Positions 18,134 through 47,787 of a stretch of DNA of 50,076 bases are shown one piece after another. The DNA is from a virus (Duplodnaviria > Caudoviricetes). Position 1 is the first letter of the stretch. Each line of letters opens with the position of its first letter. The stretch is from the IMG/VR virus record IMGVR_UViG_3300005512_000050, positions 1 through 50,076 of that record. The stretch is one strand, 5' to 3'. Both the position numbers and the translations under genes were made by a program. Under the pieces are notes generated by a model. It ran no database searches and had not been told where the DNA came from. It saw only the letters and a list, made by a program, of their open reading frames with translations.

Positions 18134-18335
18134 TTTTCAGTTCTTCTCTTTGGTTACGAATTACTTCCATATGTTTCATAGCACGAACTATAGGTTGGTT
18201 TTCATCATACTTTTTATTACTACTAGTTTTATTACTAGAAAGTAAACCCATAGTTGGTTTTTTAACTTCTTGTTTTATAGAGCCAAGATTTCCATCTATT
18301 TGCTTATACAGCATTATTGCTGGATTGTTTATCAT
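18126..18335 (-). CDS. hypothetical protein
   Basis: Overlapping start/stop with both neighbours. Confidence 0.55.
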   Translation of the reverse strand: MINNPAIMLYKQIDGNLGSIKQEVKKPTMGLLSSNKTSSNKKYDENQPIVRAMKHMEVIRNQREELKNG

Positions 18336-20236
18336 TTACCAAATACTCCACCTATGTATGCAGAACCTAATGTACCTATTAACTTACCTATAGCAGAACC
18401 AGCTTGTGAATCTGCAGCCATTTTTTGTGCTTCTTTTGCGGCATCTGCACCTAATTGTGCTATTGCCATATCTGTATATCTGTTTAACTCATTTTCTGAA
18501 GACTGCCATGCCCACTCCATAGTGTCACCATAATACTGCCAAAGATTGTTATAAGCCTGATTAGATATATCTAACACTGCTTTAGCATTTAATTCATTAG
18601 CACGATTAACTGCGGCAGTATCTGCTGTAGCTATTTCTCTACGCCATGTAGCATTACTCTGTGCAATCACTAGCTGGTTCTGTGCATTGAACTGGTCACG
18701 TTGATTTGCAATCTCCTGATTAAATCTTTCAACTGTATTCACCTGACCTGCATTAAACTGTGCTTGTGCATTAGATTGTGACGCATTAAACTGTGATGTC
18801 TGTGATTGTAGACTTGCAAAGAACTGGTCAACTTGGTTCTGTGATGTAGCATTAAACTGTCTTGAAGCATTCTCTGCCGCTTGGTCTGTAAACAAAGACT
18901 GAATACGCTGTTGTGCTTTAAACATTTCTGTCTGCTGTTGATTAGACAGGTTCTGCATATCCATCTGCATAAAGTTCTGTGCATTCTGTACAGCAGCTTG
19001 TTGTCTGTTGTTTAAGTTAGCCATATCTAACTGAGACAATGCGGCAGCTTCTGCCATAACCATTGCCTGTGAGTTAGACAAGTTCTGTAAGTTCATTGTA
19101 TTAGCGATACGGCTGTTCTCTAGTGCTACCTGTTGTTCAGCAGTAAAGTTCATATTAGCTACATCAGCTATACGTCCTGCATTCTGTACTCTAGCTTGGA
19201 ATGCTTGGTCAAACTCCATGCCCATAAATGTGGCACGTTGTTGTGCAGCCAACATATTACGTTGCTGTCTGTTAGATAAGTTCTGTGATTCAAATTGTGC
19301 TACAGTGGATGCATCAGCCTGTGCTATAGGCAGTGCTGATTCCATTGCAGCTTGTACTATAGCCTGACCAGCTAATGATGAAGCACCAAGACCACGCTTT
19401 GCTAACATGCCTTGTGCATTTCTCATTGCACCAGCAGCCCAAGCAGGTGTTTCACCACCTTCAAACTGTTGCATTAGTCCTTCTAGTTGACCTTGCACAG
19501 TAGCTTGTTGTGTCGGGGTTGCTTGTGCGGCTTGTATCTCTTCTGTAAACTTAGCAGCTTTCTCTGCATCTGCTACACCACTAATAAGTTCACCATCCTG
19601 TATCTCACGCTGTACAGGATTTTCCATAAGTATACCAGCACCTTGAGCAGCTTCTAAGTCACCCACAGATGACTTTGCTTGTTGTGCAGCTACTACATTA
19701 GCCCGTGGGTCTACAGTGCCTTGTGCAGCCTGTGTAGCATCTAGTGCTGTCTGCACACCTTCAGCAGACTGTGTTGCTTCCATCTTATTTGCTTGTGTCT
19801 CAGTGACTGTATCAGCCTGTGTTACACCTGCAACAGCAGTAGATATACCTGCTCTTGGGTCAACCATGCCTGTGTCTGTTTGCAACATTTGCTCACCAGC
19901 TACTGGTGTAGTTGCCGCTGTTGTTACACCACCTTCGGGTAATGCGCCTGTTGACATTCTATCTACAGTAATATCACCTATGCTTGGTGACTTAGGTGCT
20001 TCTTCTACTGGTGGAGTTTCCTCTACAGGTGCAGGTGGAGTTGTACCACCTTCTTGCATCTTAACTACACCACCACGTGCCATCTGCATAGCTTGTCTTG
20101 TGTAGCCCTGCATCTGTTGCTGTCGCATTGGGTCTTGTGCAATATAATCTTGAAAGCCTTGCATATTACCTTGATAGCCCATAGCACGTGCTATCTTTTC
20201 CATGCCACTAGGCTTAAATGCTTTGAACATAGCCAT
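18332..20236 (-). CDS. Gln/Ala/Asn-rich probable internal virion protein
   Basis: Long Q/N/A coiled-coil, hydrophobic Gly-rich C-terminus; MARGG and MQEGG near the N-terminus. Confidence 0.6.
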   Translation of the reverse strand: MAMFKAFKPSGMEKIARAMGYQGNMQGFQDYIAQDPMRQQQMQGYTRQAMQMARGGVVKMQEGGTTPPAPVEETPPVEEAPKSPSIGDITVDRMSTGALPEGGVTTAATTPVAGEQMLQTDTGMVDPRAGISTAVAGVTQADTVTETQANKMEATQSAEGVQTALDATQAAQGTVDPRANVVAAQQAKSSVGDLEAAQGAGILMENPVQREIQDGELISGVADAEKAAKFTEEIQAAQATPTQQATVQGQLEGLMQQFEGGETPAWAAGAMRNAQGMLAKRGLGASSLAGQAIVQAAMESALPIAQADASTVAQFESQNLSNRQQRNMLAAQQRATFMGMEFDQAFQARVQNAGRIADVANMNFTAEQQVALENSRIANTMNLQNLSNSQAMVMAEAAALSQLDMANLNNRQQAAVQNAQNFMQMDMQNLSNQQQTEMFKAQQRIQSLFTDQAAENASRQFNATSQNQVDQFFASLQSQTSQFNASQSNAQAQFNAGQVNTVERFNQEIANQRDQFNAQNQLVIAQSNATWRREIATADTAAVNRANELNAKAVLDISNQAYNNLWQYYGDTMEWAWQSSENELNRYTDMAIAQLGADAAKEAQKMAADSQAGSAIGKLIGTLGSAYIGGVFGK

Positions 20237-20238
20237 GC

Positions 20239-20469
20239 TTATTTCCTATCTAATGCCTTATCTAACTTGTCTTCTAATCTGTGCAATGCTTCCATAACTC
20301 TGCCCATGTCATCTTTTAACTCTAGCTTAGTTGCGTAGTCTTCACGAGTTTTGTTTAGCAATATCTGTAATCGTTTAACTTCAGCGAACATCTGGCGAAA
20401 TGCCCAGAATACTGGTGCAATTACCATTGTTAGTATTATGTTCCAAAAAAGCATTGCGTCCATTTCCAT
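20239..20469 (-). CDS. small membrane-anchored coiled-coil protein
   Basis: One hydrophobic helix then heptads; AGGA RBS before ATG 20469. Confidence 0.55.
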   Translation of the reverse strand: MEMDAMLFWNIILTMVIAPVFWAFRQMFAEVKRLQILLNKTREDYATKLELKDDMGRVMEALHRLEDKLDKALDRK

Positions 20470-20512
20470 TTTATTTATCCTATACTGTAGTAAGATTACC
20501 AAACAATTGGCA

Positions 20513-22513: not shown

Positions 22514-22519
22514 TGTATA

Positions 22520-24064
22520 TTACCTTCTATCGTTCGTTGTATATTCAATTGTTACTGCGTCTAATGTAAATGGTGGTATATTATCATTAGAATCTATTTG
22601 CAATGCTGCAGTAAATCCTGAACCTATTAATTGAGTTTCAAAAGTATTTTCAAGAGATGCATCACTATATGTAGCTATTCCAAATTTAGAAGTTATACTT
22701 CCGTAAGTAAATAAATCATCTGTTACATTTGAAAATGTTATGGAGTTTGGTTGAATTAAACCTGTATTTTGCCTATCAAAATCTAACTTTAATGAAACAT
22801 CTGCTTGTACACTACCTGTCGGGTCTGTGTATAAAAATAATTTGTAAAATGTTTTTCTAACTCGTGGGTCTTGAAAAGCAATATAAGGTGTTCTAAATGA
22901 TGATACTATATTAGTACCATCAAACTGTCTTCCTCTTTCTAATCTGTACACATAGCCATCGTTATTTGCAAAATATATAAATTCTTCACCGCCATCATAC
23001 TCACTGTAAGTAGCATAGGCTTTTATACCTCGTGTTTCTGCCCATGCCATTTGAGAACTTTCTAATAACTGCGTTCCCAATATACCCAGAGCAGATTCAA
23101 CAGATATGTTTTCATCAAAACCAAATATTCTATACTGACTTTTTTCTCTAATTACTAAACTGGAAAAACTCGTTGAGTTATTTACTACGTTTGTTATTTC
23201 AGACTGTATAGATTTTGATACAACAGATAAACCAAAGTCTCCAATTTTTTCTGTAGCACCAAGAAGTCTTAGTCCATCTGGACCTAGAAACATAATGTCT
23301 CCACCTACTTCTTGTGCTGTATCAGTTTCAATAGCACCCAAATCATCCGATATAGGTTGTAATACAAAATCAGCAATACTATTTCCTACTAATCTTTTTA
23401 TGCTATCTTGTGTAAAAATAATTAACTGTTCTCTAAAAACAATTAAGTCTGTTATTATACCACCAACATCTATATCACCAGCACCTTCAGCTAAATTAAA
23501 TAAAGAAGAAACTCCTGAATCTTTTTGTTGTGAATCTAAATCTGCATAACCTTCTGTATATACAAGTTTTGTTCCATTTGCAATAAATATAGCATTTTTA
23601 AATACTGTTACAAAGTCTGCACCTTCCACTGCACTAGGTGCTTTAGTTAAAGATGTAAAGGTAGAATTGTCATACGTAAAAGGTTTGTTTAAACCGTCTA
23701 CTACTATAAACTTTTCATTACCGTCAAAATTATACTTCGCAAATCTTACTTTACCTGTACCGCCTAAAGATGTTGATACAGATGTCCAACCGCTACCTGA
23801 AGACTTATATAATGTTGTACCCCTTGCAGCATATATATTTGTTTTATATCTTAAAAGACCTCTAATTACTCCGCTACCAGATAATTGATTGTCATCAGCT
23901 TTAATAAAACCTGCTAGTCTTCTATATCCACCTTCAACTGATGGTTCATAGTTTTGCAATATAGTAGCAGAACCGGGTGCATTAAGACCTTGCTGTAAAG
24001 GACTTAGGTTAGTTACTAACCCACCACGAAACTCTATAGGAAATGTTTGCCAAGCGTCTGCCAT
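22520..24064 (-). CDS. tail nozzle / stabilization protein (tubular protein B-like)
   Basis: 514 aa beta-rich protein after the adaptor gene; podoviral gene order. Confidence 0.7.
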   Translation of the reverse strand: MADAWQTFPIEFRGGLVTNLSPLQQGLNAPGSATILQNYEPSVEGGYRRLAGFIKADDNQLSGSGVIRGLLRYKTNIYAARGTTLYKSSGSGWTSVSTSLGGTGKVRFAKYNFDGNEKFIVVDGLNKPFTYDNSTFTSLTKAPSAVEGADFVTVFKNAIFIANGTKLVYTEGYADLDSQQKDSGVSSLFNLAEGAGDIDVGGIITDLIVFREQLIIFTQDSIKRLVGNSIADFVLQPISDDLGAIETDTAQEVGGDIMFLGPDGLRLLGATEKIGDFGLSVVSKSIQSEITNVVNNSTSFSSLVIREKSQYRIFGFDENISVESALGILGTQLLESSQMAWAETRGIKAYATYSEYDGGEEFIYFANNDGYVYRLERGRQFDGTNIVSSFRTPYIAFQDPRVRKTFYKLFLYTDPTGSVQADVSLKLDFDRQNTGLIQPNSITFSNVTDDLFTYGSITSKFGIATYSDASLENTFETQLIGSGFTAALQIDSNDNIPPFTLDAVTIEYTTNDRR

Positions 24065-24087
24065 ATTTATATCTCACTAGTAATATA

Positions 24088-24115: not shown

Positions 24116-24119
24116 GACT

Positions 24120-29718: not shown

Positions 29719-32457
29719 TTATCCTGTTACAAAGTATATTGTTGCGCTGTCAGGGCTTGCAGGCATACCTGTCACAACACTTAAATGATAGTTGTCTACG
29801 GTGTCAGCATTAGTACCACCGCCACCAGAGCCAGTGTCATCTGTGCCTGCTTCCCATTGTGAGGATGTTGCGTTGTATTTTAAAACCTGACCATCTGAGG
29901 GTGAGCTAACTGATACATCAGTCAATCCATCTAATGTCGATGAGCCACTAGACGCATCAGCAGGTGTCCAAGCTGTACCGTTCCAACTCAAGACTTGGTT
30001 AGACGTTGGTGCTGTTGAAGCTACATCAGCTAAGTCAGCTAGGTTGCTTGTAGTACTAAGCAATGTACTTGTAGTGGCAGGCAGAGTTAAATCTACATCA
30101 CCACTAAAATCTGCATGTGCAGGTGCTTTCAATGCCGCGTAATGTGCGTTAGCACTTTCGCAGTACAATCTTACCTCTGACTGTGAGCCTGAGTTTGTTA
30201 GGCTTAATATACCGCTTTGATTTAAAAGGACAGTGCCAGAAGCATCGGGTAATGTAATGGTGTTATCTTGAGTAGGTTCAGTGGCGTTTAATAATGTTTC
30301 AAAGTTATCAACATTAGAACCTTCAAAGTTTACGCCATTGCCATTGTTAATAAATATACCTTCATTAAACTGTACTCTGTCATAGCCAATTTCAATGACG
30401 GTAAATTCTGTGCCTCCATCATTAACTTTAAGCTTCATTCTGCCTTCTTCGCTACCAGCAGTAGTACCACCTAAGACAGTTTCTATTTCAGCTAAAACTA
30501 TTTCAGTTCCTGATGCGTTGTTACCAGTAAATTGAATATGACCAATGCTATCATCACCAGTTGGACTAGCACTGTTTCTAAAAAGTTTTAAAGTCGGGTC
30601 TTCTGTTGCACCAGCATCTGTTGAGGTGAGGGTGAGGTCGCCTGTTATTTGCGCACCAGTGCTAGAAGTTGAGAACTTAAGATTTGAATCGTGGTAAAGT
30701 TCTACTGCGCCATTAGAAATAAACTTTGCTTTATCTTCGCTTCCAGCCGCATTTTGAATATAAAATCCGTTATCAGATTTTAAAACAACACCGCCTGTTC
30801 CCCCATCAGCTAAAAGTGTCTCACTTCCTGAGTGGTATATTTCAAAATCACCACCAGTACCAAAGACCGCCTTAACATTATCGCTAAACGTCAAATTACC
30901 ACTGGTTTTTGCATCTGCCGCATCACTGCGTAGAAACTGTGTGCTGTCTAGGCTGTCTAGGGTAGCGGCATTACCACCGTCACCCGTATTGCCTGTCGCT
31001 ACAGCGGTAACACGTCCAAAGGCATCTACAGTAATTGTATCTATTTTAGTTAAGTCACTAGTTGAACCGTATGTACCAGCACCTATTGTTCCTGTTCCAT
31101 CTAAACTTAATGATACTGTTCCTGAAGAACCACCACCACTTAAACCTGTTCCTGCTGTTACACCTGTAATGTCACCTACGTTAGTAGTGTAACCAAATGA
31201 AAGTATTCTGTCATCTATAGCTGCTGCTGTCATTAATGCAGTATCAACATCGCTAAAAGATTCAGAGGAAAGTTGTATTGTAGAACCAGCAAAATTTGAT
31301 AAAGTTAAATTAGATACTTCTGTTAAAAATCCGCTATCGTTATTAAACCCAGATAAATTAATATTAGCTTTAGTTAATTTCTTTTGTGCGTTTGCTGAAT
31401 CAACTACAGCAAAGAAATCACCATCACCATCACTAGTAGATGTTGTTAGTTCAGATAAATCAAGTACAATATCACGAACATTAATATCAATACCTATACC
31501 ACCTGTATACGATACAGATTCGCCAAACTTTGCAAATGTTATTTCTGTTGTACCAAATGTAATTAAACCAGATACATTACACACATAAGATTCACCAGCA
31601 CCTGTGTTACCTTCATCTACATAAAAATATGAACCTTCATCTAGTGCATCTGATGTTCCTATTCCAGAACTGTCAGCGTCAGTAGCACGAGTAAGTACCC
31701 AGTTAGTAGAAGCAGAACCTGTGTTAGTTACAGTATAAACACCATTCTCTGTAGCATCTGTTTGATTATATATTAAAACTCTATCATTAGTAGACAGTGT
31801 AACACCATCTATTAATAGAGCAACTTGTGTACTATTATTTGTAAGTGTAGCACCTACACCTGATGAACCATTGTTATACGTACCAGCAAGATTGCCATAA
31901 CTGTCAGGAAGTTCAACTCTAACAGGGTCATGTATATGTATAGCTGTAGATGCAAGACTATCTACATATGCTTTTGTAGCGGCATCTGTATTAGCAGTAG
32001 GTGTAGCAAGACCTGTAATCTTATTACTACCAACAGCAATGTCACCATTATCATTACGCAAGAATGAAGTACTGTTTATACTATCTAATGTTTCAGCATC
32101 TACATTTGTTAAGTTGCGACCATCAAATGCTGAAATGTATCCACTAGCGTCAAGATATACTGCTTTCTCTGCAGGTTGTGTAACAAATATTGTTCGCTCA
32201 CCTGCTGTCCAGTTTACAGCATTGTCACTATTACTAGACTGTAATACAGTTGTTCTAGCTAATGTTGTTCCTGAAGATGTGTATGTACCTATACCTACTT
32301 CAAAGTCTGTACCATCAGTACAACAATAGTAGGTAGTATTACCATCACCTATAGATGAAAAAGCCTCAAAACCAAGAACAGCACCAGCAAGTGTATATGT
32401 GCCAGTGCCTGTAGTGGTAGTGGTTTCTTTTATTCGGTCAGCAACAACTAATGCCAT
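29719..32457 (-). CDS. tail fibre protein
   Basis: DRIKETTTTTGTG, DAATKAYVD, ENGVY...LTRATDAD, TLDSLDSTQFLRSD and LTDV...GQVLKYN modules. Confidence 0.8.
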   Translation of the reverse strand: MALVVADRIKETTTTTGTGTYTLAGAVLGFEAFSSIGDGNTTYYCCTDGTDFEVGIGTYTSSGTTLARTTVLQSSNSDNAVNWTAGERTIFVTQPAEKAVYLDASGYISAFDGRNLTNVDAETLDSINSTSFLRNDNGDIAVGSNKITGLATPTANTDAATKAYVDSLASTAIHIHDPVRVELPDSYGNLAGTYNNGSSGVGATLTNNSTQVALLIDGVTLSTNDRVLIYNQTDATENGVYTVTNTGSASTNWVLTRATDADSSGIGTSDALDEGSYFYVDEGNTGAGESYVCNVSGLITFGTTEITFAKFGESVSYTGGIGIDINVRDIVLDLSELTTSTSDGDGDFFAVVDSANAQKKLTKANINLSGFNNDSGFLTEVSNLTLSNFAGSTIQLSSESFSDVDTALMTAAAIDDRILSFGYTTNVGDITGVTAGTGLSGGGSSGTVSLSLDGTGTIGAGTYGSTSDLTKIDTITVDAFGRVTAVATGNTGDGGNAATLDSLDSTQFLRSDAADAKTSGNLTFSDNVKAVFGTGGDFEIYHSGSETLLADGGTGGVVLKSDNGFYIQNAAGSEDKAKFISNGAVELYHDSNLKFSTSSTGAQITGDLTLTSTDAGATEDPTLKLFRNSASPTGDDSIGHIQFTGNNASGTEIVLAEIETVLGGTTAGSEEGRMKLKVNDGGTEFTVIEIGYDRVQFNEGIFINNGNGVNFEGSNVDNFETLLNATEPTQDNTITLPDASGTVLLNQSGILSLTNSGSQSEVRLYCESANAHYAALKAPAHADFSGDVDLTLPATTSTLLSTTSNLADLADVASTAPTSNQVLSWNGTAWTPADASSGSSTLDGLTDVSVSSPSDGQVLKYNATSSQWEAGTDDTGSGGGGTNADTVDNYHLSVVTGMPASPDSATIYFVTG

Positions 32458-35649: not shown

Positions 35650-38379
35650 TTATTTTTTAGAGGCTAATCCACCTGACCTCATCTGTTTAGGTTGTTTAAT
35701 TTCTTTTTCCATTAAACCACCTTTTGCTCTACCGCCTGTTGCTAATCTTCCACCACTACTAGTAGAACTTTTAATGGCTTCTTTAATGCTTTTTGCTTTG
35801 TCTTTAGAGAAATTAGAGGTTAGCTTTTTTTCTCTTTCTTTGTCTTTTTTATTTTGTTTTCTTTTTTCTTCATCTTTTACTAGTTGTTTTTGAATTTCAA
35901 TAGACCTTTGCTTACGGGCTGCCTCTTTTGCTTTTGCTATAATATCTTCAAAATTACTTTCTTTTTCTTCTTTGCGTAACTCTTCAGCTAACTTTATTTC
36001 ATTTACAGTTTTACCCGATAAATACGTTTTTGAAAAATTATTACTGTCTTCTTGTGCTTTTTCTCTATCTTCGTTACTACCACTTTGTAGTGCTTTTGCT
36101 ATTGAATTAGAAACTTTTTTAATTTCATTTGATGCATTAGTAGCAGACATTATTGTTGGGTCTTTATCTATAATTAAACTAACTAAATCATTTTGAAATT
36201 CTTCGGATTTTTTAGGAAGTTCAGATGGATTAAAAAATTCACCTATTTGACCTATTATACTTTCTTTTTGAACATAGCGACCAGTTATAGGGTCATATAA
36301 ATTACCCATACCATCTGCTATATAACCATTTACAACTTGACCCTGTTTGAAGTTACCCCCAAACATAGAGCCTATAGCAGTAGATTTAAAAAGTTGTTCA
36401 AATGGATTTATTACATCCATAAATCCTAACCTTTGTGCTTCTTTAATTCTAGCTTGCATATTTTCATAGCCAGAAAAATCTGGTGAACCATCATCATCGT
36501 CTTTACGCACCTGTGCCTGACCAACAGTAGGTGTTACAGATACTTGTTGTGCATCAGGTGCATCGTACTCACTAGCCAAAACAAAACCTTCTGGTAATTG
36601 CGTTACACCGGGAATGTATGTTATAGTTCTTTTCTCACCTGTTGTTGGATTAATTATCTCTACAGTTTGTGGTGCAGATTCAGGTGTTTGTACTACACCC
36701 GGATATGATACATCTTGCATTTGTTCAGGTGTAAATGTAGGTACTGCTTGTTGTTGTGCTGGTGTATAAGTTGGTGCAATAGGTGTTGTTGCCTGTGTAG
36801 GCTGTTGCACTGTTGGTGTTACAGGTGCTTGTGGTTGTGATACAAAGGATGTAGCAGGTACTTGTGACGGCACATAACCAGATATACCAGTAGCAGGTAC
36901 TTGTGACGGCACATAACCAGATATACCAGTAGCAGGTCCTAGTAGTCCACCCTGTTGCAATTCTACTGTATCGTTATTATACTCTTCTTCATCGTCCATG
37001 TCAAGGTCTGTTAATTCAAAAGGTAAATTATCTGGCATAACAGCTTCTTCACTATTGCCCATTTGCCCCATGTCTTCCATAGTCTGCAAACCCATCTTAG
37101 CTTGCTGTCTCATCTGCATTAGCTTTTCAAGACCAATGTATCGCACTACATCTGCAGGAAATACAAACTCACCTTCACTTAATTGTGCAGGTATATCATC
37201 ACGTACTTCTTCTTGTGTAGAGCCGGGTGGAACATCATTGCCTGATACAGGGTCTATTGTATTACCTTCGTCTTTAAGACCACCATCTTCAAACATTTCC
37301 ATTTGTTTTGACATCCCACCTTCTGCAAACTTTTGTGATTTATCCATATCTAATTCTGCAAATTGATAATCGTCCATTACATCACCACCCTTTGACATTT
37401 CTTTTAATTCTTTTAATGTTGGTAGGTCTTCAACACCAGCTTCTCTATTTAATTTTTTTACTTCGTCTGCATCAAGTACACGATTAACTTTCATCTGACC
37501 ACTTATTAGCCAATTACCTTGCATATTAGGATTTGTTTTATATCTATAAAAACCACCTAAAGGTATTTCCTCAGTAATTTGTGCCTCAGAAGTATTAAGT
37601 AAGCCTTTGCGTTTTCCAGACTTTACAATAGACGCATTTGAATCTGCCACCTTTTGCCAATCTACGTCTGCTGGCATTTCTACTTCAGCCCATACTTGGT
37701 CTTCACTTCTGTACTTTTTACCATTAATTTCGTTACCTATATGCGGAGCAGCAGGTGTATCTCCAGCATGCCATCCCGGTCTTAGAGCAACTGCTTTAAC
37801 ACTTTTTGCTTTTGAACCCTTTGGTAAAAAACCTTTTTCAATAAGTATATCACGAGTTTCTTGGTCTGGTATTGGTATGCTATCACCAGTTCCTTTTTTA
37901 CCTCCCGTTCCTTTTGATGGAACATACTTTTTGCCATTAGCGGAAGTAAAAGTAGATTCAGGTATTACTGCATCTATAAACTCACCTTGTTTTACAGGAG
38001 TATCTGCATCAACAAAAAGAGGATATAAATTTCCGTCTTCACCTTTTGTAAATAACTTATATGCTTTTACAGTTTTTTTAGGTTTAAAAGTTCTAAGTGC
38101 TTTACCTGCCATATCTCCTACTACAGGAATTAAACCCAAAGCACCTGCCGCAGTTTCTATACCAGCACCTACATAATCTTTTTCATCTATAGCATCTGAT
38201 ACACGTTTGACTGCCATGGCTTCCCCAACTCCGGGAATAAACTCTGCCGCACCTTTTGCTATATCAACTTTTGATTCATCTAACTTTTCAATAACATCAC
38301 CAGCAGTTTTTTTTGTAGGACGTTCTACAGTACCACTAGGTTCTCGTGTCATAAATCCTGAAGGTTGTTTAAGTGCCAT
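35650..38379 (-). CDS. 909-aa multidomain protein: pre-toxin-like helices, putative enzymatic domain, 'GEFV' core, variable tail
   Basis: EFIPGVG...LIPVVG; AYKLF...RPGWH...VWAEVE; DDIPAQLSEGEFVFPADVV; several xxGG motifs. Confidence 0.6.
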   Translation of the reverse strand: MALKQPSGFMTREPSGTVERPTKKTAGDVIEKLDESKVDIAKGAAEFIPGVGEAMAVKRVSDAIDEKDYVGAGIETAAGALGLIPVVGDMAGKALRTFKPKKTVKAYKLFTKGEDGNLYPLFVDADTPVKQGEFIDAVIPESTFTSANGKKYVPSKGTGGKKGTGDSIPIPDQETRDILIEKGFLPKGSKAKSVKAVALRPGWHAGDTPAAPHIGNEINGKKYRSEDQVWAEVEMPADVDWQKVADSNASIVKSGKRKGLLNTSEAQITEEIPLGGFYRYKTNPNMQGNWLISGQMKVNRVLDADEVKKLNREAGVEDLPTLKELKEMSKGGDVMDDYQFAELDMDKSQKFAEGGMSKQMEMFEDGGLKDEGNTIDPVSGNDVPPGSTQEEVRDDIPAQLSEGEFVFPADVVRYIGLEKLMQMRQQAKMGLQTMEDMGQMGNSEEAVMPDNLPFELTDLDMDDEEEYNNDTVELQQGGLLGPATGISGYVPSQVPATGISGYVPSQVPATSFVSQPQAPVTPTVQQPTQATTPIAPTYTPAQQQAVPTFTPEQMQDVSYPGVVQTPESAPQTVEIINPTTGEKRTITYIPGVTQLPEGFVLASEYDAPDAQQVSVTPTVGQAQVRKDDDDGSPDFSGYENMQARIKEAQRLGFMDVINPFEQLFKSTAIGSMFGGNFKQGQVVNGYIADGMGNLYDPITGRYVQKESIIGQIGEFFNPSELPKKSEEFQNDLVSLIIDKDPTIMSATNASNEIKKVSNSIAKALQSGSNEDREKAQEDSNNFSKTYLSGKTVNEIKLAEELRKEEKESNFEDIIAKAKEAARKQRSIEIQKQLVKDEEKRKQNKKDKEREKKLTSNFSKDKAKSIKEAIKSSTSSGGRLATGGRAKGGLMEKEIKQPKQMRSGGLASKK
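36851..36937. repeat. perfect 39-bp tandem duplication (about 2.2 copies)
   Basis: GTAGCAGGTACTTGTGACGGCACATAACCAGATATACCA twice, plus GTAGCAGGT. Confidence 0.95.
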
Positions 38380-38581
38380 TTACCTCATTCCGTAAATATT
38401 TAAGTTTTCGGAGTACTGCTATTGCGCCTTGTTGTCTATGTACTAGTATTGAATCATCTGTCTGTTCTAGTACTTTCTGGTGTTGTTCTATTATTAAGTT
38501 TATATAATCACTGAACGCTTCCCACTGGCGGTTGTTGTTCACTAGGGGCTTGAGTTTGCTGAGTACCTGCTGTCTGTCCAT
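38369..38581 (-). CDS. small portal-adjacent hypothetical protein
   Basis: AAGGA RBS before ATG 38581; HRQQGAIAVLRKLKYLR; overlaps the portal 3' end. Confidence 0.6.
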   Translation of the reverse strand: MDRQQVLSKLKPLVNNNRQWEAFSDYINLIIEQHQKVLEQTDDSILVHRQQGAIAVLRKLKYLRNEVNGT

Positions 38582-40643
38582 TTGCGCTAAATCCTTGTTC
38601 ACCCGGAACTGGTGCTTGTCCTGTTCCTATGTTACCGCCACCTGCACCTGTTGGGTCTAATGGATTAGCCCCTGCTGGTGCGCCTTGTTCTTGTGGCTGT
38701 TCTTGTTGGAAGCCTTTCATCAGTTCTGCCTGAATAGCGGCTTCATCCATATTGTTGGTAACTTTGTCGGGGTCTAACTCCATAGATTTTGCAATCTCAC
38801 GGATAATATATTGGAACTTAGCAAACGGTGCAAGTGCTGGATTGCTTGCTACCTGTAAGAACTGCATTAGTCTTTGACTACGTACTTCGTTAGCCATTAG
38901 ACTTTCTGTACCTCTTGCTCTTACTTCTAAGTCACCTTTTATTTGTGGGTCATAATCAAACTGCATATTAAATCTAAACAGTCCTTCTCCTAAAGGACGT
39001 AATAGATAATCATCTACGTTCTTAATAACAGTCTTTGTGCCACCTGCTGCAGCATTCATCAACATAGATATACCACTAGCAGTTCTACCTACACCTGATA
39101 CACCTGTCTGACCATGTGCAAAGGATGGGAAGCCTGTGCTTTCATCTGCAAGTACACGAGCCTTGTCAAACAGCATCATGTTCTCACTAGATACATTCGG
39201 GAACTTTGTACCAAATATAGCCTGACCCGGTGCGCCACCTTGTCTACGGAACACCTTGCCCGGATATAGTGATAAGTCTTGACCCGGCACTAGGTTTGTC
39301 TCATCAACCTCTACAATCAAATTGCCAGACAATACAGCATTGTCAACAGCCATACGCATAAAGCCATTCATTAATGTCTGTGTATCGTCCATGTTTTCAG
39401 CGATACCTACACCAAAGAATGAGTATGGGTTTAACTCATATGGTGCAGCATGGTATGGTATTCTAGCAGGTTTGAATGGATTAAGTACCATACGTAGTAG
39501 CTTACCATTACAAATCCATACGTTAGCCTGTAACTCATCAAATGTTTTCAGTTCTTCTGGTATCTCTACATCTGCTTCTTCAAGCACATCTGTATCAACA
39601 GTACCCCAATACTCAAGAACATCAAATCGTTCTACACCGTGTTCTGGTGCATAGTCAGATAAATCATCTTCCCAGTATTCTTTGATGTAGTTCTCACCCA
39701 TCTGGATGACTTCATCAATTACGTTTCCTCTGAACATCGGCCTCTTTTTGAGATTCCGTAATTGCGACCTTGACATCTTGTGTCGTTCAATGACATACTG
39801 CGCTTCATCCATATTATTGGCATCAGGGTCAGGATAGAAATTCCATACAGAAACATGGGTAACTTGTGGCATTGTTTTGAAAACTGGGTCATACTCACCG
39901 TCCTCATTCCAGTTGGGATATTCTTTGTCAATAGCAAATGGACCTTTCATAACACCAGTTCCAAATAATGCCATTTCAAATGCAGAGTTTCTAAGATGCT
40001 TACTTGCACCTGATTCTTCTAACTGGTCATGTATTTTCTTCTGCATCTTCTTTGCAGCCACCATAGCTGGGCTAAAGGTAACTGAGGTAGGTGTCATACC
40101 CGGACCTTCTTTAAGCCCGTCTATACCGCTTAATTTGTCCGTTAAAGGACCAAGCATTTCTTCTAGTGTCTTTGCTGTAGCACCCGGTGGTAAGTCTCTA
40201 CCATCACCAGCAAATCCGTATGGGCTACTTAGTGCAGTATCACCACGTAATTGTTCTGGTTCTTGTGGGTCAAAGTTGACATCTGCGACAACTCCTTCTG
40301 GCAACTCAGTAGGTTCAACAGAGACAGGAAAACGATTATTAGCAAAAAGGACATCAACGATTTGCCCATAAGCTGCCAAAGTTTTTGTTTTTGTAACCTT
40401 GATAAAGACACGTGACTTCTCCGATTCAGTAAACTGTACATCAGGTCCGTATAATCCACGGTAATTACGATAGGCTTTTAGCCAACGCTGTTCATCTTGA
40501 TAGCGATAGTCTTCTGCTCTTTTATACTTTTCACGAATGAATGGTACGATTGAAGATACATCAGCATCTTCTGTTGTGCTATCCTCAGTATCTTCTAAGG
40601 CGATAGCTTCATCTTCAATCATTACATTTTCATCTTCTGCCAT
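38508..40643 (-). CDS. portal protein
   Basis: 711 aa after the terminase; LFGTGVMKG, WNFYPDP, FFGVGI and RTASGISML motifs. Confidence 0.9.
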   Translation of the reverse strand: MAEDENVMIEDEAIALEDTEDSTTEDADVSSIVPFIREKYKRAEDYRYQDEQRWLKAYRNYRGLYGPDVQFTESEKSRVFIKVTKTKTLAAYGQIVDVLFANNRFPVSVEPTELPEGVVADVNFDPQEPEQLRGDTALSSPYGFAGDGRDLPPGATAKTLEEMLGPLTDKLSGIDGLKEGPGMTPTSVTFSPAMVAAKKMQKKIHDQLEESGASKHLRNSAFEMALFGTGVMKGPFAIDKEYPNWNEDGEYDPVFKTMPQVTHVSVWNFYPDPDANNMDEAQYVIERHKMSRSQLRNLKKRPMFRGNVIDEVIQMGENYIKEYWEDDLSDYAPEHGVERFDVLEYWGTVDTDVLEEADVEIPEELKTFDELQANVWICNGKLLRMVLNPFKPARIPYHAAPYELNPYSFFGVGIAENMDDTQTLMNGFMRMAVDNAVLSGNLIVEVDETNLVPGQDLSLYPGKVFRRQGGAPGQAIFGTKFPNVSSENMMLFDKARVLADESTGFPSFAHGQTGVSGVGRTASGISMLMNAAAGGTKTVIKNVDDYLLRPLGEGLFRFNMQFDYDPQIKGDLEVRARGTESLMANEVRSQRLMQFLQVASNPALAPFAKFQYIIREIAKSMELDPDKVTNNMDEAAIQAELMKGFQQEQPQEQGAPAGANPLDPTGAGGGNIGTGQAPVPGEQGFSANGQTAGTQQTQAPSEQQPPVGSVQ

Positions 40644-43536: not shown

Positions 43537-43538
43537 TG

Positions 43539-44618: not shown

Positions 44619-44644
44619 GTGTCTCCCCCTTCACGTGTTGCATT

Positions 44645-44908
44645 TTATTTGTAACCACCGCCTTTTGCTTTATATTTGCTGGCTAGTAGCTGTGCTTTTC
44701 TTGCAGACCACTGACCCGGATTACCACCTTTACTGCCAGCTTTAATGCTATTAAATAAGTTCTTTCTCATTGTGGGCTTAGTATAGTTGCCAGCTTCATT
44801 AACTCTTGATTTGCTCTGTGTCGTACCGCCTTTCGCAAGGCCAATCTTTCTAGTCGGTTTCTTTTTCTTTGCAGTTTGTGAGGTTTTCTTTGTAGAGACA
44901 CGTGCCAT
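44645..44908 (-). CDS. basic protein, DUF5872-like N-terminal half
   Basis: NYTKPTMRK...KGGNPGQWSARKAQLLASKYKAKGGGY. Confidence 0.55.
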   Translation of the reverse strand: MARVSTKKTSQTAKKKKPTRKIGLAKGGTTQSKSRVNEAGNYTKPTMRKNLFNSIKAGSKGGNPGQWSARKAQLLASKYKAKGGGYK

Positions 44909-44912
44909 CTCC

Positions 44913-45254: not shown

Positions 45255-45255
45255 A

Positions 45256-46005: not shown

Positions 46006-46151
46006 TACTTAATACGTACCTTATCAATACAGATAACTGACCACTTGTGCAGTTTAACATTCCACCTGCCAAGTAGTCTAGCTATCTTTAAACAGACATG
46101 ACTTAAGAATGTCCAGTATGCATCTACTATAATATTCTTTAAGTCAGACAT
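46005..46151 (-). CDS. 48-aa hypothetical protein (not in ORF track)
   Basis: MSDLKNIIVDAYWTFLSH...; TAATG coupling at both ends. Confidence 0.55.
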   Translation of the reverse strand: MSDLKNIIVDAYWTFLSHVCLKIARLLGRWNVKLHKWSVICIDKVRIK

Positions 46152-46288
46152 TACTTTTTCTTTGCTACGCCACCACGCATCATTTTCTTCTTAGCCATCT
46201 TAGCCATGCCACCGCCACGCATCTTCTTTTGTGCAACACCGCCACGCATCATTTTCTTTTTAGCTACTTTTGTTTTACCCATTGCCAT
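46151..46288 (-). CDS. 45-aa Lys/Met/Gly-rich basic peptide
   Basis: AGGAG RBS; MAMGKTKVAKKKMMRGGVAQKKMRGGGMAKMAKKKMMRGGVAKKK. Confidence 0.7.
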   Translation of the reverse strand: MAMGKTKVAKKKMMRGGVAQKKMRGGGMAKMAKKKMMRGGVAKKK

Positions 46289-46805
46289 TACGCAATCTCC
46301 TTCTATCAAGAACCAAGGCTTCATATGTATCATCAGGAAAATGTTTATAGTATCCTGATTTCTCTAAACTCAGTGCAGCATCATCTAACACTGACAAACG
46401 CTGCACAAATACCATGCAGTATTCTAAATCACTACTAGTTATACCATCTTCTTCTAAAAAGTCAAGCCCTGCATCACTAGCATCAAACTCTGGATGAAAC
46501 ACCATCAAATGTAAATCTATACCTGCTAGACTTAGTGCTTCATTCATTCCATCACATAGACCATCTAGGTATTCCATGCTTGGCATATCTTCGTCAGCCC
46601 ATACAACTATGTCATAATCGTGGCTATCAAATATTTGTATCTCTGCACGTAGACCTTCAAGACCTGTGTTAACACTAAACATCACCTGATTATCTGCCCA
46701 CGCTTTAGCTGCGTATGGGCATGGTGGTAATCCGTTTAACTTTACGTTTGGTATCTCAAGAAAGTTATGTGACCAATTACGGATGTCTTGTTCTACTCTA
46801 TGCAC
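46275..46805 (-). CDS. DUF1415-like protein
   Basis: PCPYA and MVFHPEFD motifs; GTG start inferred. Confidence 0.55.
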   Translation of the reverse strand: MHRVEQDIRNWSHNFLEIPNVKLNGLPPCPYAAKAWADNQVMFSVNTGLEGLRAEIQIFDSHDYDIVVWADEDMPSMEYLDGLCDGMNEALSLAGIDLHLMVFHPEFDASDAGLDFLEEDGITSSDLEYCMVFVQRLSVLDDAALSLEKSGYYKHFPDDTYEALVLDRRRLRNGNG

Positions 46806-47046
46806 GTCTATTCTTTTTACCTGCTGTAGATGTTCTAGCGAAAGAACGATTACGTGATGCACGTTGTGTTGTTAAGTTACTGCGTCTGTTATCAGTAGGA
46901 TTACCATTCTTGTGTGCTACATCCTTACCTGCTACGTTTACACCGCCCTTTGCTAGTGTTGCACGTGCAGCATTACGAGATGCCCTGCGTTTCTTCTGGG
47001 CAGGTTTAGAGTGGTAGTTAGCATATTCTTTTTTGTAATTACGCAT
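46798..47046 (-). CDS. small HNH-like endonuclease
   Basis: KDVAHKNG...SNL...NRS. Confidence 0.65.
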   Translation of the reverse strand: MRNYKKEYANYHSKPAQKKRRASRNAARATLAKGGVNVAGKDVAHKNGNPTDNRRSNLTTQRASRNRSFARTSTAGKKNRRA

Positions 47047-47374
47047 TACCTGTAATCTTATTAAATGCTTCAGGGCTTTTAGCTTTCAATGCTTTCAGTC
47101 CGGGGTTCATTGTGACTGAACCACCTGCTGCGTACATATGCTTCTTACCATATGCCATGCCACCATCTTTCATTACTGTTTTATCAGTAGTAGCTTTTTC
47201 ACCACCTGTAACCATTGATAACGGTGGTGCTGTTTCTCCACGACTTTTTAATTCAGTAATAGCACGTTTTTTATCAGCTACTGATGCACCACTATTTCTA
47301 TTCAACATAGCTTTTAAGGCTGATGTAGATTGGTCTGATACTTTAAACTTTGGTCTTGATTTAGGTTCAGCCAT
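47039..47374 (-). CDS. basic hypothetical protein with xxGG motifs
   Basis: MKDGG and YAAGG; Lys-rich. Confidence 0.6.
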   Translation of the reverse strand: MAEPKSRPKFKVSDQSTSALKAMLNRNSGASVADKKRAITELKSRGETAPPLSMVTGGEKATTDKTVMKDGGMAYGKKHMYAAGGSVTMNPGLKALKAKSPEAFNKITGNA

Positions 47375-47382
47375 TTTATTTC

Positions 47383-47787
47383 TCACTTCTTTTTTAATTC
47401 AGTTGTATATTTTTTACCATTCCATGTAAAAGTTTTATTACCTTTTTTTCTGAAGTGTGCAAATGCTTCTTTAAATGATACACCACCTTTTGAAACACCT
47501 ACGTTAAAGTTTTTAGCTTTTTTTGCAGGAGAAGTGTTAGCTTTGGGTTTAGCTTTTGTAGATTGCCTTAACTCCATAGATAGTTGAGCAAACTCATTTT
47601 TAGGTGAAGCTAGTTTAGATGGGTCAGAACCTGTCTTTTTTGCGCCAACTGTCGTTGACTTTATAGCTTTTTGTAACGCATCTCCGGGAGTATTTTTCAT
47701 CATAAACTGTAGTACATCATTTTTTGTACTAAAAGCTTTTCGTAGATTAGCCATTAAATCATCGCCAATTTTCTTTTTATCTGCCAT
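47383..47787 (-). CDS. basic hypothetical protein
   Basis: AGGAG RBS; C-terminal FKEAF...FTWNGKKYTT module. Confidence 0.65.
   Translation of the reverse strand: MADKKKIGDDLMANLRKAFSTKNDVLQFMMKNTPGDALQKAIKSTTVGAKKTGSDPSKLASPKNEFAQLSMELRQSTKAKPKANTSPAKKAKNFNVGVSKGGVSFKEAFAHFRKKGNKTFTWNGKKYTTELKKK

Follow-up and report, generated by a model that had tools for sequence, protein, structure and literature searches.

Several late proteins of one phage repeat a hydrophobic residue, two further residues and then Gly-Gly, which raises the question of what this motif does. The phage is a marine HMO-2011-type podophage, and the window (the whole stretch of DNA that was analysed) is 50,076 nucleotides long. 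The original prediction was a code for maturation cleavage, like that of the adenovirus protease, or for capsid targeting. We find that the motif is a real, conserved, and selected short element. From sequence comparison, it appears to be the edge of a short module in the tape measure ("ruler") proteins of long-tailed phages, and it therefore probably marks proteins that exit the virus via the tail, rather than an adenovirus-like cutting code.

Inventory and enrichment of the motif

Every previously listed instance is present in the ORF to which it had been assigned:

MARGG and MQEGG: 634-aa protein, residues 52-56 and 60-64
MSKGG, FAEGG, FEDGG, LQQGG, LATGG, RAKGG, and MRSGG: 909-aa protein
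LAKGG: 87-aa ORF and HNH-like ORF
MMRGG (twice) and MRGGG: 45-aa peptide within ORF 46151-46333
MKDGG and YAAGG: 115-aa protein
VSKGG: 134-aa protein (47383-47787)

We compared motif counts in 41 minus-strand and 20 plus-strand ORFs with 2000 per-protein shuffles. On the minus strand, the broad motif [MFLYV]xxGG was weakly enriched (29 seen vs. 18.4 expected, reached in 17/2000 shuffles), and both MxxGG (9 vs. 2.0) and [MFLYV]xxGG[VLMI] (13 vs. 3.9) were in excess of all shuffles (0/2000 each). The broad motif showed no excess in the plus-strand ORFs (3 vs. 3.5). When sequences were shuffled in 30-aa blocks, the broad motif stood at 29 vs. 21.0 (100/2000) and the narrow form [MFY]xxGG[VLMI] at 8 vs. 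1.8 (0/2000). In the strictest control every GG was fixed in place, which gives a null that is somewhat inflated by newly arising GGG runs. There the broad motif had no excess (29 vs. 36.5, 1872/2000), MxxGG stood at 9 vs. 5.4 (180/2000), and the narrow form was still enriched (8 vs. 3.1, 19/2000).

We also compared late and early genes, from greedy ORF calls, in seven related genomes. The broad motif is not late-specific, because its ratio is 1.21x in late genes (172 vs. 141.6) and 1.24x in early genes (35 vs. 28.3). The narrow form reached 3.2x in late genes (39 vs. 12.1; early, 5 vs. 2.7), with strong enrichment in HMO-2011, CRP-1, CRP-9, and CRP-3 and none in CRP-212, CRP-603, or CRP-738 (3 of the 7). 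Enrichment thus stands for the narrow form; that of the broad one is weak and vanishes under the local control. The refined motif is Φ-[A/x]-x-G-G-[L/M/V]-(V), which is also strongly conserved in the homologs of four protein families (see below). The adenovirus-type code does not fit. Adenain consensus sites are (M/L/I)-x-G-G, and this spacing is not enriched in the window (13 vs. 12.2) or, by our count, in the seven genomes (109 vs. 88.0). The register is also wrong: the hydrophobic residue is fifth before the bond in the phage motif and fourth in adenain sites.

Could these be chance instances, picked by eye from Gly-rich and Met-rich low-complexity sequence? The loss of excess for the broad pattern once GG and local composition are held, its equal frequency in early genes of the seven genomes, and the retention of one listed instance in only 1/27 homologs would all fit. 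However, the data already contradict chance for the core instances: 52-57 diverged homologs share the motif residues without exception, the enrichment of the narrow motif survives even the strictest control, and offsets in tape measures are fixed (see below). We consider it a very improbable explanation, which holds only for strays such as that of the HNH-like ORF.

Conserved joints in late proteins

The 634-aa protein begins a cluster of late genes:

20045..20236, minus strand: residues 1-64 of the 634-aa protein, a conserved N-terminal module that ends in MARGGVVKMQEGG
13005..20236, minus strand: terminal cluster, defined by position, of five ORFs (634, 69, 165, 353, and 1186 aa)

The 634-aa sequence is hypervariable beyond MARGGVVKMQEGG: column conservation is 0.88 for residues 51-60, 0.52 for 61-70, and 0.16 for 71-80. 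In 57 distinct N-termini, M52, A53, G55, and G56 are invariant and G63 and G64 are conserved in at least 90%. By gene position, the cluster probably encodes ejection proteins: these are the last late-strand genes, after the nozzle and fibers, and their syntenic counterpart in SU10 is the ejection proteins gp20-24 (PMC9509320, in part). Neither PHROGs nor domain scans gave a family match for the cluster, and the Atlas leads for the 634-aa protein are weak (T7_gp14, 0.82; P22_gp7, 0.81).

The second main carrier lies next to the portal gene:

38508..40643, minus strand: portal protein, directly upstream of the 909-aa gene (SU10_portal, 4.3e-27; phrog_332, phrog_1216)
35650..38379, minus strand: 909-aa post-portal protein (ORF call)
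37279..37398, minus strand: three upstream joints, MSKGG (residues 328-332), FAEGG (351-355), and FEDGG (363-367)
37132..37200, minus strand: unit core DDIPAQLSEGEFVFPADVVRYIG, residues 394-416
36946..36960, minus strand: LQQGG, the joint downstream of the core, at residues 474-478 (about 78 residues past the core start)
35653..35763, minus strand: C-terminal tail with four GG sites (SSGG, LATGG, RAKGG, and MRSGG)

The 909-aa protein consists of a variable N-terminal cargo, one GG-GEFV-GG unit, a PT-rich linker, a variable C-terminal part, and a conserved GG tail. Residues ~331-540 are the only part common to most of 77 homologs, and residues 325-480 match 6018 proteins at E ≤ 0.001 (3532 representative clusters). 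Column conservation in the family is 0.13-0.19 ahead of the FAEGG block, 0.62 within it, and at least 0.83 beyond. Across 52 sequences, the core and both glycines of FEDGG (G47/G48) are invariant, and those of FAEGG (G35/G36) are invariant or at least 90% conserved. HMO-2011 gp49 has MQVGG at the position equivalent to LQQGG. An x-x-x-GG joint lies at most 14 aa upstream of the QMEMF box in 145 of 149 fused homologs, and natural unfused forms begin 2-6 residues before that box, where the joint sits in the fused forms. The motifs thus coincide with breaks between conserved and variable sequence, as had been proposed for domain boundaries. Finally, 176 of 212 distinct C-termini have ΦxxGG in their last 30 aa, as compared to 631 of 4640 random 30-aa windows (13.6%).

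Among 36 long homologs of the 909-aa protein, LPD23 was found in 7, Phage_L5_gp82 in 5, Phage_lysozyme2 in 2 (1 with LysM), ART-PolyVal in 1 (below cutoff), and no domain in 21. These domains lie ahead of the constant module, as in polyvalent proteins, whose genes in phages likewise adjoin portal and terminase genes (PMC5512222, in part). From this gene order and these domains, we take the two proteins in which the motif is concentrated (the polyvalent protein encoded after the portal and the first protein of the terminal cluster) to be probably internal or ejected. (The text of PMC9038755, which we searched for virion proteomics of HMO-2011-type phages, has 0 occurrences of "proteom".) The Pfam-type scan of the ORFs found no MuF domain, which distinguishes MuF/SPP1 gp7-type head proteins from the 909-aa protein, whose constant piece is the tape-measure-type unit. 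The available part of PMC5512222 does not mention this unit and has 0 occurrences each of "glycine" and "linker".

The remaining instances are in small proteins:

46151..46288, minus strand: basic peptide of 45 aa in which K-K-M-(M)-R-G-G-(V/M)-A-K is repeated three times
47039..47386, minus strand: 115-aa protein that has the joints MKDGGM and YAAGGS but not the core
44645..44908, minus strand: 87-aa basic protein with LAKGGT (matches phrog_17747)
46798..47046, minus strand: HNH-like ORF (HNH_3 match), with LAKGG outside the feature

Of 80 syntenic loci, 73 contain a basic repeat-peptide ORF with 2-6 repeats, and an unannotated 50-aa ORF of HMO-2011 holds the same kind of peptide. An HMYxxGG protein is present in 54 of the 80 loci. 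Homologs of the 115-aa protein retain MKDGG (44/44) and YAAGG (41/45), and LAKGG is retained in 41 of 44 covering homologs of the 87-aa protein. Conservation in homologs, which the original prediction called for, thus holds for the 634-, 909-, 115-, and 87-aa families. The LAKGG of the HNH-like ORF is a chance instance because only 1 of 27 homologs keeps it. The VSKGG of the 134-aa protein is covered in 1 of its three homologs.

A unit shared with tape measure proteins

The motif flanks a unit of ~60-70 residues, Φ-A-x-GG-x-V ... D-x-IPA-x-LS-x-GEFV ... Φ-A-x-GG-x-V, which occurs 1-3 times, at fixed spacing, in tape measure proteins and is covered by no Pfam or NCBIfam model. A helix lies between GEFV and the downstream flank. 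In an outgroup profile search, 7969 of 8000 scored candidates matched at E ≤ 0.001, and many were named tape measure or had TMP_3, PhageMin_Tail, or SLT domains. Among 36 unit carriers that we scanned, a Pfam domain of tape measures was present in 17 and a muralytic domain, next to the unit, in 7. The 909-aa protein itself has no tape-measure domain in Pfam or NCBIfam. Its core aligned (hhalign) to 31 tape-measure units at 96.3% (E = 1.8e-9, 25 columns) and to six outgroup segments at 98.1% (E = 1.3e-13, 37 columns), although those six had been chosen by tblastn with the same query. The composite also occurs in other podophage proteins, namely pelagiphage HTVC103P gp79 (post-portal), HTVC027P gp82, and a Rhizobium phage protein.

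In 88 cores from 52 proteins of at least 750 aa, the motif was exactly 17 residues upstream of the core in 47 and 25-45 residues downstream in 69, with both flanks in 39. The flanks are thus at −17 and about +34 in tape measures, as compared to −33 and +78 in the post-portal unit. The upstream logo of the tape-measure unit is [F/R/Y/K]-A-x-G-G. Alanine at −2 occurs in 80% and 65% of tape-measure flanks vs. 33% and 52% here, and F/M/Y/L at −3 in 79% and 92% of flanks on the HMO-2011-type side. The flank logos of the two families match, and they bear out the earlier remark that V, L, or M follows the GG. For the 634-aa motif, the match to the tape-measure flank is at the motif level only (hhalign probability 1.2%).

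One explanation for these joints is that they are flexible seams, safe junctions that tolerate the exchange of cassettes, with neither a partner nor a cut. The motifs coincide with conservation breaks, fused and unfused forms differ exactly at the joint, and the region is predicted to be disordered. This seems rather improbable because a passive linker would not retain the same residues (Φ at −3, A at −2, V/I at +3) in phages as different as actinobacterial, proteobacterial, and marine ones, and would not hold an exact spacing to the core (47/88 at −17). Nor would it be repeated 3-6 times within a 45-aa peptide, where there are no cassettes to connect.

The GEFV stretch had been suggested as a separate reader or protease domain. 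Its tie to the motif is confirmed, but it is the core of the GG-flanked unit. AlphaFold2 on the unit alone gave pLDDT of 60.7 and 54.9, so the unit is predicted not to be an autonomous fold. Three solved virions have a tape measure that contains it, and in each of them it lies outside the modelled part: the built residues are 1658-1699 in Douge (PMC13033339), the last 33 in JBD30 (PMC11445458, in part), and 818-849 in lambda (PMC12617516, in part). The D, S, E, and G residues of the core are invariant, and such a near-invariant unfolded stretch would also fit a catalytic or scissile role.

Possible roles: tethering, cleavage, or packaging

We tentatively propose, at somewhat less than even confidence, that the motif forms the edge of an old unit that folds conditionally and keeps ejected proteins tethered at the tail exit. 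The unit is present 1-3 times in the tape measures of long-tailed phages and once in the HMO-2011-type polyvalent protein encoded beside the portal. Edge-only copies would have spread in the HMO-2011-type group, to the end of the 634-aa module, the post-portal C-terminal tail, and the small basic peptides. During storage in the head or tail channel, unit segments would stay extended, and Gly-Gly would provide a tight yet flexible link from a constant anchor to cargo that can be exchanged. Upon release, the unit would fold or dock, as a short strand or hook, on channel-lining proteins or fellow copies, so that ejected proteins would remain tethered at the tail exit; cutting would not be required. 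Motif conservation, the conserved/variable boundaries, the fixed spacing in tape measures, the core homology, and the lack of a predicted autonomous fold are results of the analysis; we infer the ejection of the carriers, the docking of the motif, and the identity of its partner.

One related system is JBD30 gp46 (PDB 8rk3), which has the unit at residues 1015-1085 (E = 1.1e-14). Within it lies the "hook" that its authors predict at residues 1022-1066. They speculate that it anchors the protein in the baseplate and is cut at 1066, and they liken it to the end of T5 pb2* that holds the protein in the opened hub (PMC11445458, in part). Mycobacteriophage Douge gp16 (PDB 8zdo/8zdq) has units at 961-1028 and 1410-1472 (E = 7.9e-32). 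Both are siphophage rulers, unlike the podophage 909-aa protein.

A second possibility is that the joints are maturation cleavage sites in a corrected register. Cargo domains or peptides would then be released, either in the course of assembly or once ejected, by a host protease, some other protease, or the unit. Cleavage at the joints is possible because T5 pb2 is cut at R|AEGG and lambda gpH near its unit. T5 pb2 is cleaved after R1127 into pb2* and pb2C; in the opened hub, the end of pb2* that precedes the cut is docked as a strand (PMC10038345, in part). In our translation, the cut is at FVPR|AEGGMMYPG, which fits the upstream-flank logo. However, it is three residues before the GG rather than after it, and the likeness is at the motif level only (hhalign E = 0.32, 10 columns, not significant); pb2 has no recognisable IPA-LS-GEFV core.

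Lambda gpH has one unit at residues 730-789 (FATGG at 733, GEFVF at 754, and YATGG at 778), and its residues 701-853 match the unit profile at 90.9% (hhalign, E = 1.1e-6, 59 columns). The unit falls inside residues 690-817, a glycine-rich part of gpH that is structurally unresolved and lies close to the maturation cut. This cut turns gpH into gpH* and gpHC and removes ~14 kDa at the C-terminus "from the glycine-rich region" (PMC12617516, in part). By calculation, products of 77.7-78.5 and 14.6-13.8 kDa would follow from a cut after residue 710-720, and products of 79.8 and 12.5 kDa from one at F733|A. The best-fitting cut is thus 13-23 residues upstream of the first joint, and within about 15-25 residues of the unit. 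Lambda gpH ends in M-R-D-G-G-L-F, which resembles the M-R-S-G-G-L-A end of the 909-aa protein, but it is a siphophage tail-tube ruler with the usual N-terminal helical part and narrower flank spacing, and the 909-aa protein is a portal-adjoining podophage product.

Cleavage could also release the muralytic domains beside units, and it would suit the start of unfused post-portal forms at the joint and the invariant D, S, and E of the core. Against it, a motif 5 residues from the C-terminal end makes little sense as a cut site, and, as the original prediction had noted for a prohead protease, domain scans and PHROGs found no peptidase family in any of the 62 ORFs. This includes cysteine protease and C39 domains, although adenain, ASFV pS273R, and C39 leaders likewise have Gly-Gly after a hydrophobic residue, in basic core-like peptides. 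We view cleavage as unlikely, albeit a serious candidate.

Third, the motif could be an HMO-2011-type packaging or capsid-targeting tag. Cargo would then be enclosed in the head because the repeat peptides and the basic K-K-M-K-R-G-G-L-A tail attach to scaffold, portal, or DNA. The tail motif is kept on otherwise variable C-terminal parts (176/212), the 45-aa peptide, present in 73/80 loci, resembles a tandem of it, and the 909-aa gene sits between the portal and a scaffold-like gene. Also, the homologs bear domains of phage polyvalent proteins, for which packaging has been predicted (Iyer et al., 2017, PMC5512222, in part). However, capsid targeting is not the general meaning of the motif because tape measures with the motif and unit lie outside the head, in the tail tube. 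Many copies are flanked by acidic rather than basic residues (FAEGG, FEDGG). We judge such a tag to be quite unlikely.

The T4 capsid targeting sequence is an N-terminal tag that the prohead protease cuts off. It is likewise short and common to enclosed, later injected internal proteins; unlike it, the motifs described here are internal or C-terminal and also occur in tail-tube proteins, and no prohead protease was found in the 62 ORFs.

The late genes and the carriers of the motif

HMO-2011-type phages rank among the most abundant viruses in the sea. We assign the window to this group of podophages, as its capsid-to-terminase DNA is 77.7% identical to that of Puniceispirillum phage HMO-2011. 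Its genes are arranged as follows:

Up to ~12,976, plus strand: replication genes (integrase, DnaB-type helicase, family A polymerase, endonuclease I, class II ribonucleotide reductase, MazG).
48,495 down to 13,005, minus strand: late genes, with every ORF in this stretch on the minus strand.
Late order, first half, minus strand: small basic ORFs, lysozyme, small and large terminase, SU10-type portal, 909-aa protein (35650..38379).
Late order, second half, minus strand: scaffold-like protein, major capsid protein, GP4/SU10-type fiber, adaptor, nozzle (22520-24064), terminal cluster.
Terminal cluster, 13005..20236, minus strand: proteins of 634, 69, 165, 353, and 1186 aa, without a family match.

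The portal and adaptor families match those of SU10, whose ejection proteins (gp20-24) are encoded by five genes at the corresponding end of the operon (PMC9509320). By this analogy of gene position, the sole basis for the assignment, the 634-aa protein is probably an ejection protein. Its leads in a protein atlas are weak (T7 gp14 cluster, 0.82; P22 gp7 cluster, 0.81). (The phiRIO-1 paper names HMO-2011 gp44 as tubular tail B.) The 909-aa post-portal protein has relatives in 14 of 50,697 phage records, from HMO-2011 and roseophage CRP only.

A tyrosine integrase (window 1302-2216, plus strand; Phage_integrase, 4.3e-15) heads the replication strand, as does gp09 in HMO-2011, which suggests that this abundant marine group has the potential for a temperate lifestyle. 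The family A DNA polymerase (window 4228-6270, plus strand) has a DnaJ-type CXXCXGXG zinc-finger-like insertion between its exonuclease and polymerase domains; the match (E = 8.7e-4) is below the Pfam cutoff, and the annotation of HMO-2011 mentions the same insertion. A 912-aa protein with 11.6% glycine (window 29719-32457, minus strand), which is flanked by GP4-type fiber genes, matches head-decoration PHROGs at residues 137-333 and could be a head fiber or a tail fiber. Finally, the portals of this group (loci L003-L082 and HMO-2011, L001) end with a glycine motif in a different register (P-P-M-G-G-I-Q or M-G-P-L-Q), and these portal genes lie directly upstream of the gene for the post-portal protein.

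Conservation of the motif and comparison with chance

The original prediction was that a hydrophobic-x-x-Gly-Gly motif recurs in the late proteins, and every instance that it listed is present in the window. For the broad pattern [MFLYV]xxGG, the 41 late ORFs contain 29 matches, as compared to 18.4 expected from per-protein shuffles (17 of 2000 reach 29) or 21.0 from shuffles of 30-aa blocks (100 of 2000). With the Gly-Gly pairs kept fixed and the other residues shuffled locally, there is no excess (29 versus 36.5, with this null somewhat inflated by new GGG runs). The proposed contrast between late and replication proteins fails for the broad pattern because, across seven related genomes, it occurs at 1.21 times expectation in late genes and 1.24 times in early genes. 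The narrow pattern [MFY]xxGG[VLMI] is enriched over background: the window contains 8, versus 1.8 from 30-aa block shuffles (0 of 2000) or, with the strictest control, 3.1 (19 of 2000). The seven genomes together have 39 late matches versus 12.1 expected and 5 early matches versus 2.7 expected, with nothing in three of the seven. As we picked these patterns after inspecting the data, we give more weight to conservation than to counts. We also considered whether the x-K/R/E-G-G codons provide internal Shine-Dalgarno sites (AGGAGG with an in-frame start), but GGAGG is present in only 1 of 33 instances; the Gly-Gly codons are mostly GGT GGT or GGC GGT.

To assess conservation, we scanned viral contigs three times and took the best 80 loci from each scan. 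The motif is conserved in homologs, with a near-invariant Gly-Gly in the families of both the 909-aa protein (n = 52) and the 634-aa protein (n = 57). The module of the 909-aa protein was found in all of its best 80 loci. An alignment of 52 distinct members has an invariant stretch, RDDIPAQLSEGEFV-PADVVR, and an invariant Gly-Gly in FEDGG; in FAEGG, the Gly-Gly is either invariant or at least 90% conserved. Among 57 distinct N-termini of the 634-aa family, there is no variation at M52, A53, G55, or G56, and G63/G64 are at least 90% conserved. Column conservation in this family falls from 0.88 (residues 51-60) to 0.52 (residues 61-70) and 0.16 (residues 71-80), which places the end of the conserved module at the double motif (MARGG/MQEGG). 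The direction of the boundary is opposite in the 909-aa family, where the variable part comes first: conservation rises from 0.13-0.19 upstream of residue ~350 to 0.62 in the FAEGG block and at least 0.83 beyond.

Several small proteins retain the motif as well. MKDGG and YAAGG of the 115-aa protein are present in 44/44 and 41/45 homologs, LAKGG of the 87-aa protein is present in 41/44, and 73 of the best 80 syntenic loci contain the 45-aa basic peptide, with 2-6 repeats each. VSKGG of the 134-aa protein lies within the aligned part of 1 of 3 homologs. In HMO-2011 itself, the motifs are retained at homologous positions. (LAKGG in the HNH-like ORF was kept in just 1 of 27 homologs and is a chance match.) The possibility that the motif as a whole reflects chance or composition is extremely remote, and we restrict this explanation to stray instances.

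A unit shared with tape measure proteins

Within the 909-aa protein, the motifs flank a core, D-x-IPA-x-LS-x-GEFV followed by A-x-x-V ... G ... L (residues 394-416). Used as a tblastn query, the 76-residue GEFV core matched the 14 HMO-type records and, at weak E-values, 26 others: tape measures from phages of Gordonia, Corynebacterium, Vibrio, Rhodococcus, and Nitrincola, and proteins of pelagiphages and a Rhizobium phage. The six matches that we inspected each have Φ-A/N-x-G-G on both sides of D-x-IPA-x-LS-x-GE(F/Y)V, where Φ is a hydrophobic residue. (For one of the six, pelagiphage HTVC103P gp79, the gene likewise lies between those for the portal and capsid.) A profile of these six segments matches the HMO module over 37 columns (hhalign, 98.1%, E = 1.3e-13), although this is partly circular because the segments were found with the HMO query. 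Of 8000 scored candidates among longer proteins, 7969 match the six-segment profile at E ≤ 0.001, and many of these are named as tape measures or contain TMP_3, PhageMin_Tail, SLT, or glucosaminidase domains. A domain scan of 36 matches identified a tape-measure domain in 17 and a muralytic domain in 7.

The spacing of the parts is also preserved. Among the matches listed, 52 proteins of at least 750 aa contain 88 cores; the motif is exactly 17 residues upstream in 47 of these, 25-45 residues downstream in 69, and on both sides in 39. The spacing is wider in the 909-aa protein, with FEDGG at −33 and LQQGG at +78 from the start of the core. An independent alignment of 31 units has invariant residues in the flanks and the core alike (G11, G12, G16, G18, D23, P26, A27, L29, S30, G32, E33, V35, G62, and G63), and its profile matches the HMO module at 96.3% (hhalign, E = 1.8e-9). 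The flank logos of the tape measures, with alanine at −2 (80% and 65% in the two flanks), an aromatic or basic residue at −3, and valine or isoleucine at +3, agree with those of the HMO families. Lambda gpH has a single unit (FATGG 733, GEFVF 754, YATGG 778) that matches over 59 columns (hhalign, 90.9%, E = 1.1e-6).

The original prediction considered the GEFV stretch to be a separate domain that might read or cleave the motif. The tie to the motif stands, but because the GG flanks and the GEFV core recur together, they are two parts of one conserved unit and not a motif and its reader. In the window protein and in six tape measures, the unit is not covered by any model from Pfam or NCBIfam. 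A full-text literature search with the letters of the core returned nothing relevant (papers beyond its reach are possible), and the unit is at best poorly described in print. What is new here is the presence of the unit, and of the bare edge motif, in short-tailed phages, on probably internal proteins and small basic peptides. If this holds, it connects short-tailed with long-tailed phages in how they equip proteins for exit through the tail.

In the tape measures P0287, P0292, P0263, and P0302, units immediately precede or follow a muralytic domain (SLT or glucosaminidase); for example, P0287 has units at 279-354 and 957-1030 and an SLT domain at 354-459. A C-terminal ΦxxGG is not a general feature of tape measures (only 5 of 49).

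A tape measure protein has an N-terminal tape-measure domain and a long helical ruler, and it is encoded between the tail chaperones and the distal tail protein. The 909-aa protein is not a tape measure: it has no match to the Pfam or NCBIfam families TMP_3, PhageMin_Tail, TIGR02675, or TIGR01760, and its gene belongs to a short-tailed phage, with the portal gene on one side and a scaffold-like gene on the other. It belongs to a family of 6018 proteins (3532 clusters at 50% identity) without prior annotation, which, if the relationship holds, is tied to the unit in thousands of tape measures. Residues 1-330 align to only 4-20 of 77 homologs, and the sole match of this N-terminal domain is phrog_30118, whose function is unassigned. 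In 15 of 36 long homologs, LPD23, L5_gp82, lysozyme, or ART-PolyVal domains precede the constant module. By single-linkage clustering, which is a crude test, the N-terminal cargo forms 9 clusters (the largest with 132 of 150) and the C-terminal parts form 2, which demonstrates no more than mosaicism and does not establish a variety of unrelated cargo. An x-x-x-GG joint is at most 14 residues from a conserved QMEMF box in 145 of 149 homologs with N-terminal cargo, and unfused homologs begin at this position. (In the 11 loci checked, no ORF upstream of an unfused form ends in GG, as a ubiquitin-like arrangement would have it.) At the other end, the motif is within the last 30 residues of 176 of 212 distinct C-termini, as compared to 13.6% of random windows, and this tail is kept despite a C-terminal domain that is not conserved.

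Judging by sequence, the family as a whole fits the description of polyvalent proteins by Iyer et al. (2017), with variable effector-type domains that precede a constant piece and a gene beside the portal. The constant piece is the tape-measure-type unit, and a MuF domain is absent from the 909-aa protein. For polyvalent proteins as a class, packaging and injection have been predicted (Iyer et al., 2017, PMC5512222).

Structure, cleavage, and possible roles of the unit

The unit is not predicted to form an autonomous fold. AlphaFold2 gave no confident fold for either the HMO module (pLDDT 60.7, with the sole helix at construct residues 98-119) or the tape-measure unit (pLDDT 54.9, from the 31-sequence alignment). 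The 909-aa and 634-aa proteins had no significant sequence match among solved structures, and the best match for the profile of the 909-aa module was a CAP-Gly domain (E = 1, not significant). The tape measures of three solved virions, Douge, JBD30, and lambda, contain the unit in their sequences. As it is modeled in none of these structures, it looks to be extended or mobile during storage. The parts that were built are the last 33-42 residues in JBD30 (PMC11445458) and Douge (PMC13033339) and residues 818-849 in lambda (PMC12617516). For JBD30, the authors predicted with AlphaFold2-multimer that residues 1022-1066, which fall within the unit, make up a hook with two helices and one short hairpin. 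They speculate that, as in T5, the protein is cut (here at residue 1066) and that the hook then anchors it in the baseplate (PMC11445458). In T5, the new C-terminus of pb2* is inserted as a strand between hub subunits (PMC10038345).

We tentatively favor, at somewhat less than even confidence, an explanation in which the motif serves as edge strand and hinge to a conditionally folding unit, and in which the edge-only copies in HMO-2011-type phages have the same purpose on other proteins that exit through the tail. The joint would be a flexible but conserved link between a constant anchoring piece and variable cargo. We infer that the carriers are ejected and that, after release, the joint may dock on channel-lining proteins or on other copies. 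An alternative is that the joint is a purely passive seam. This would leave the position-specific conservation and the repeat peptide unexplained, and we consider it very unlikely. Similarly improbable is a head-targeting tag specific to HMO-2011-type phages: it would be consistent with the basic tail and the basic peptides, but it is at odds with the presence of the unit in tail-tube proteins.

Another possibility is that the joints are cleaved. The original prediction likened the motif to the sites of adenovirus protease, (M/L/I)-x-G-G, but the conserved hydrophobic residue is three positions before the GG and not two, [MIL]xGG is not enriched (13 versus 12.2 in the window and 109 versus 88.0 in seven genomes), and no cognate cysteine protease was found among the ORFs. 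Its analogy to C39 peptidases does not hold either, as C39 leaders are N-terminal stretches of ~15-30 residues that end in GG, whereas the motifs in the window are internal or C-terminal, and no window ORF has a Pfam match to a C39 domain or an ABC transporter. Likewise, T4-type capsid targeting sequences are short N-terminal tags that the prohead protease removes, while our motifs are at residues 52-64, internal, or at the extreme C-terminus. The 909-aa protein has none of the features of these three systems that we tested. We agree with the original prediction that the window encodes no recognizable prohead protease: we found no peptidase families in the 41 late ORFs (Pfam at E ≤ 0.01, and PHROGs) or the 21 other ORFs (Pfam at E ≤ 0.001), although divergent proteases could escape these searches.

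Outside of the window, T5 pb2 is cut after R1127 (PMC10038345), at R|AEGGMM, which matches the logo of the upstream flank, but the profile match of this site to the unit is not significant. Lambda gpH is cut within a glycine-rich region, with the site and the catalyst undefined for decades (PMC12617516); the fragment sizes are best fit by a cut at ~710-720, and F733|A fits less well. The P1 paper describes no cut of the tape measure, and our literature search found no virion proteomics of HMO-2011-type phages. We consider cleavage at the joints to be unlikely, although less so than the passive seam or the head-targeting tag.

A more elaborate proposal, which we consider to be quite unlikely, is that the unit is a shared exit module: a self-processing hook, triggered by assembly or ejection, in which the docking strand and the scissile site coincide at the Φ|A-x-G-G edge. 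This would account for the unexplained cuts in lambda gpH and T5 pb2. HMO-2011-type podophages would have converted the bare edge motif into an address tag that lets unrelated cargo domains, an ejection protein, and small DNA-coating basic peptides exit via the tail. If true, it would be a functional link between the tape measures of siphophages and the internal proteins of podophages. Returning to the edge-and-hinge explanation, if it holds, then FATGG, GEFVF, and YATGG of lambda gpH become concrete targets for mutation.

As for the small peptides, the HMO-2011 record contains an unannotated 50-aa ORF (50628-50780, minus strand, between gp65 and gp66) with three K-K-M-M-R-G-G-M repeats, which is syntenic with the 45-aa peptide of the window. 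Some versions of the repeat peptide, from small ORFs that adjoin the phrog_28122 gene (L174, L176, L188, L208, and L228), have an extension at the N-terminus (…F-M-A-M-A-R-K-M-G-L-S-V-K-E-M…) that resembles a small helix-turn-helix. A K-G-G joint separates it from the repeats, and the resemblance hints at nucleic-acid binding.

The conserved modules at 20045-20236 and 36990-37130 (both on the minus strand) are also unusually rich in methionine. The 634-aa protein has 10 methionines in residues 1-64, and the 909-aa protein has an M-x-x-M run after the GEFV core. At the C-terminus of the JBD30 tape measure, methionines are reported to hold an ion on the tail axis (PMC11445458).
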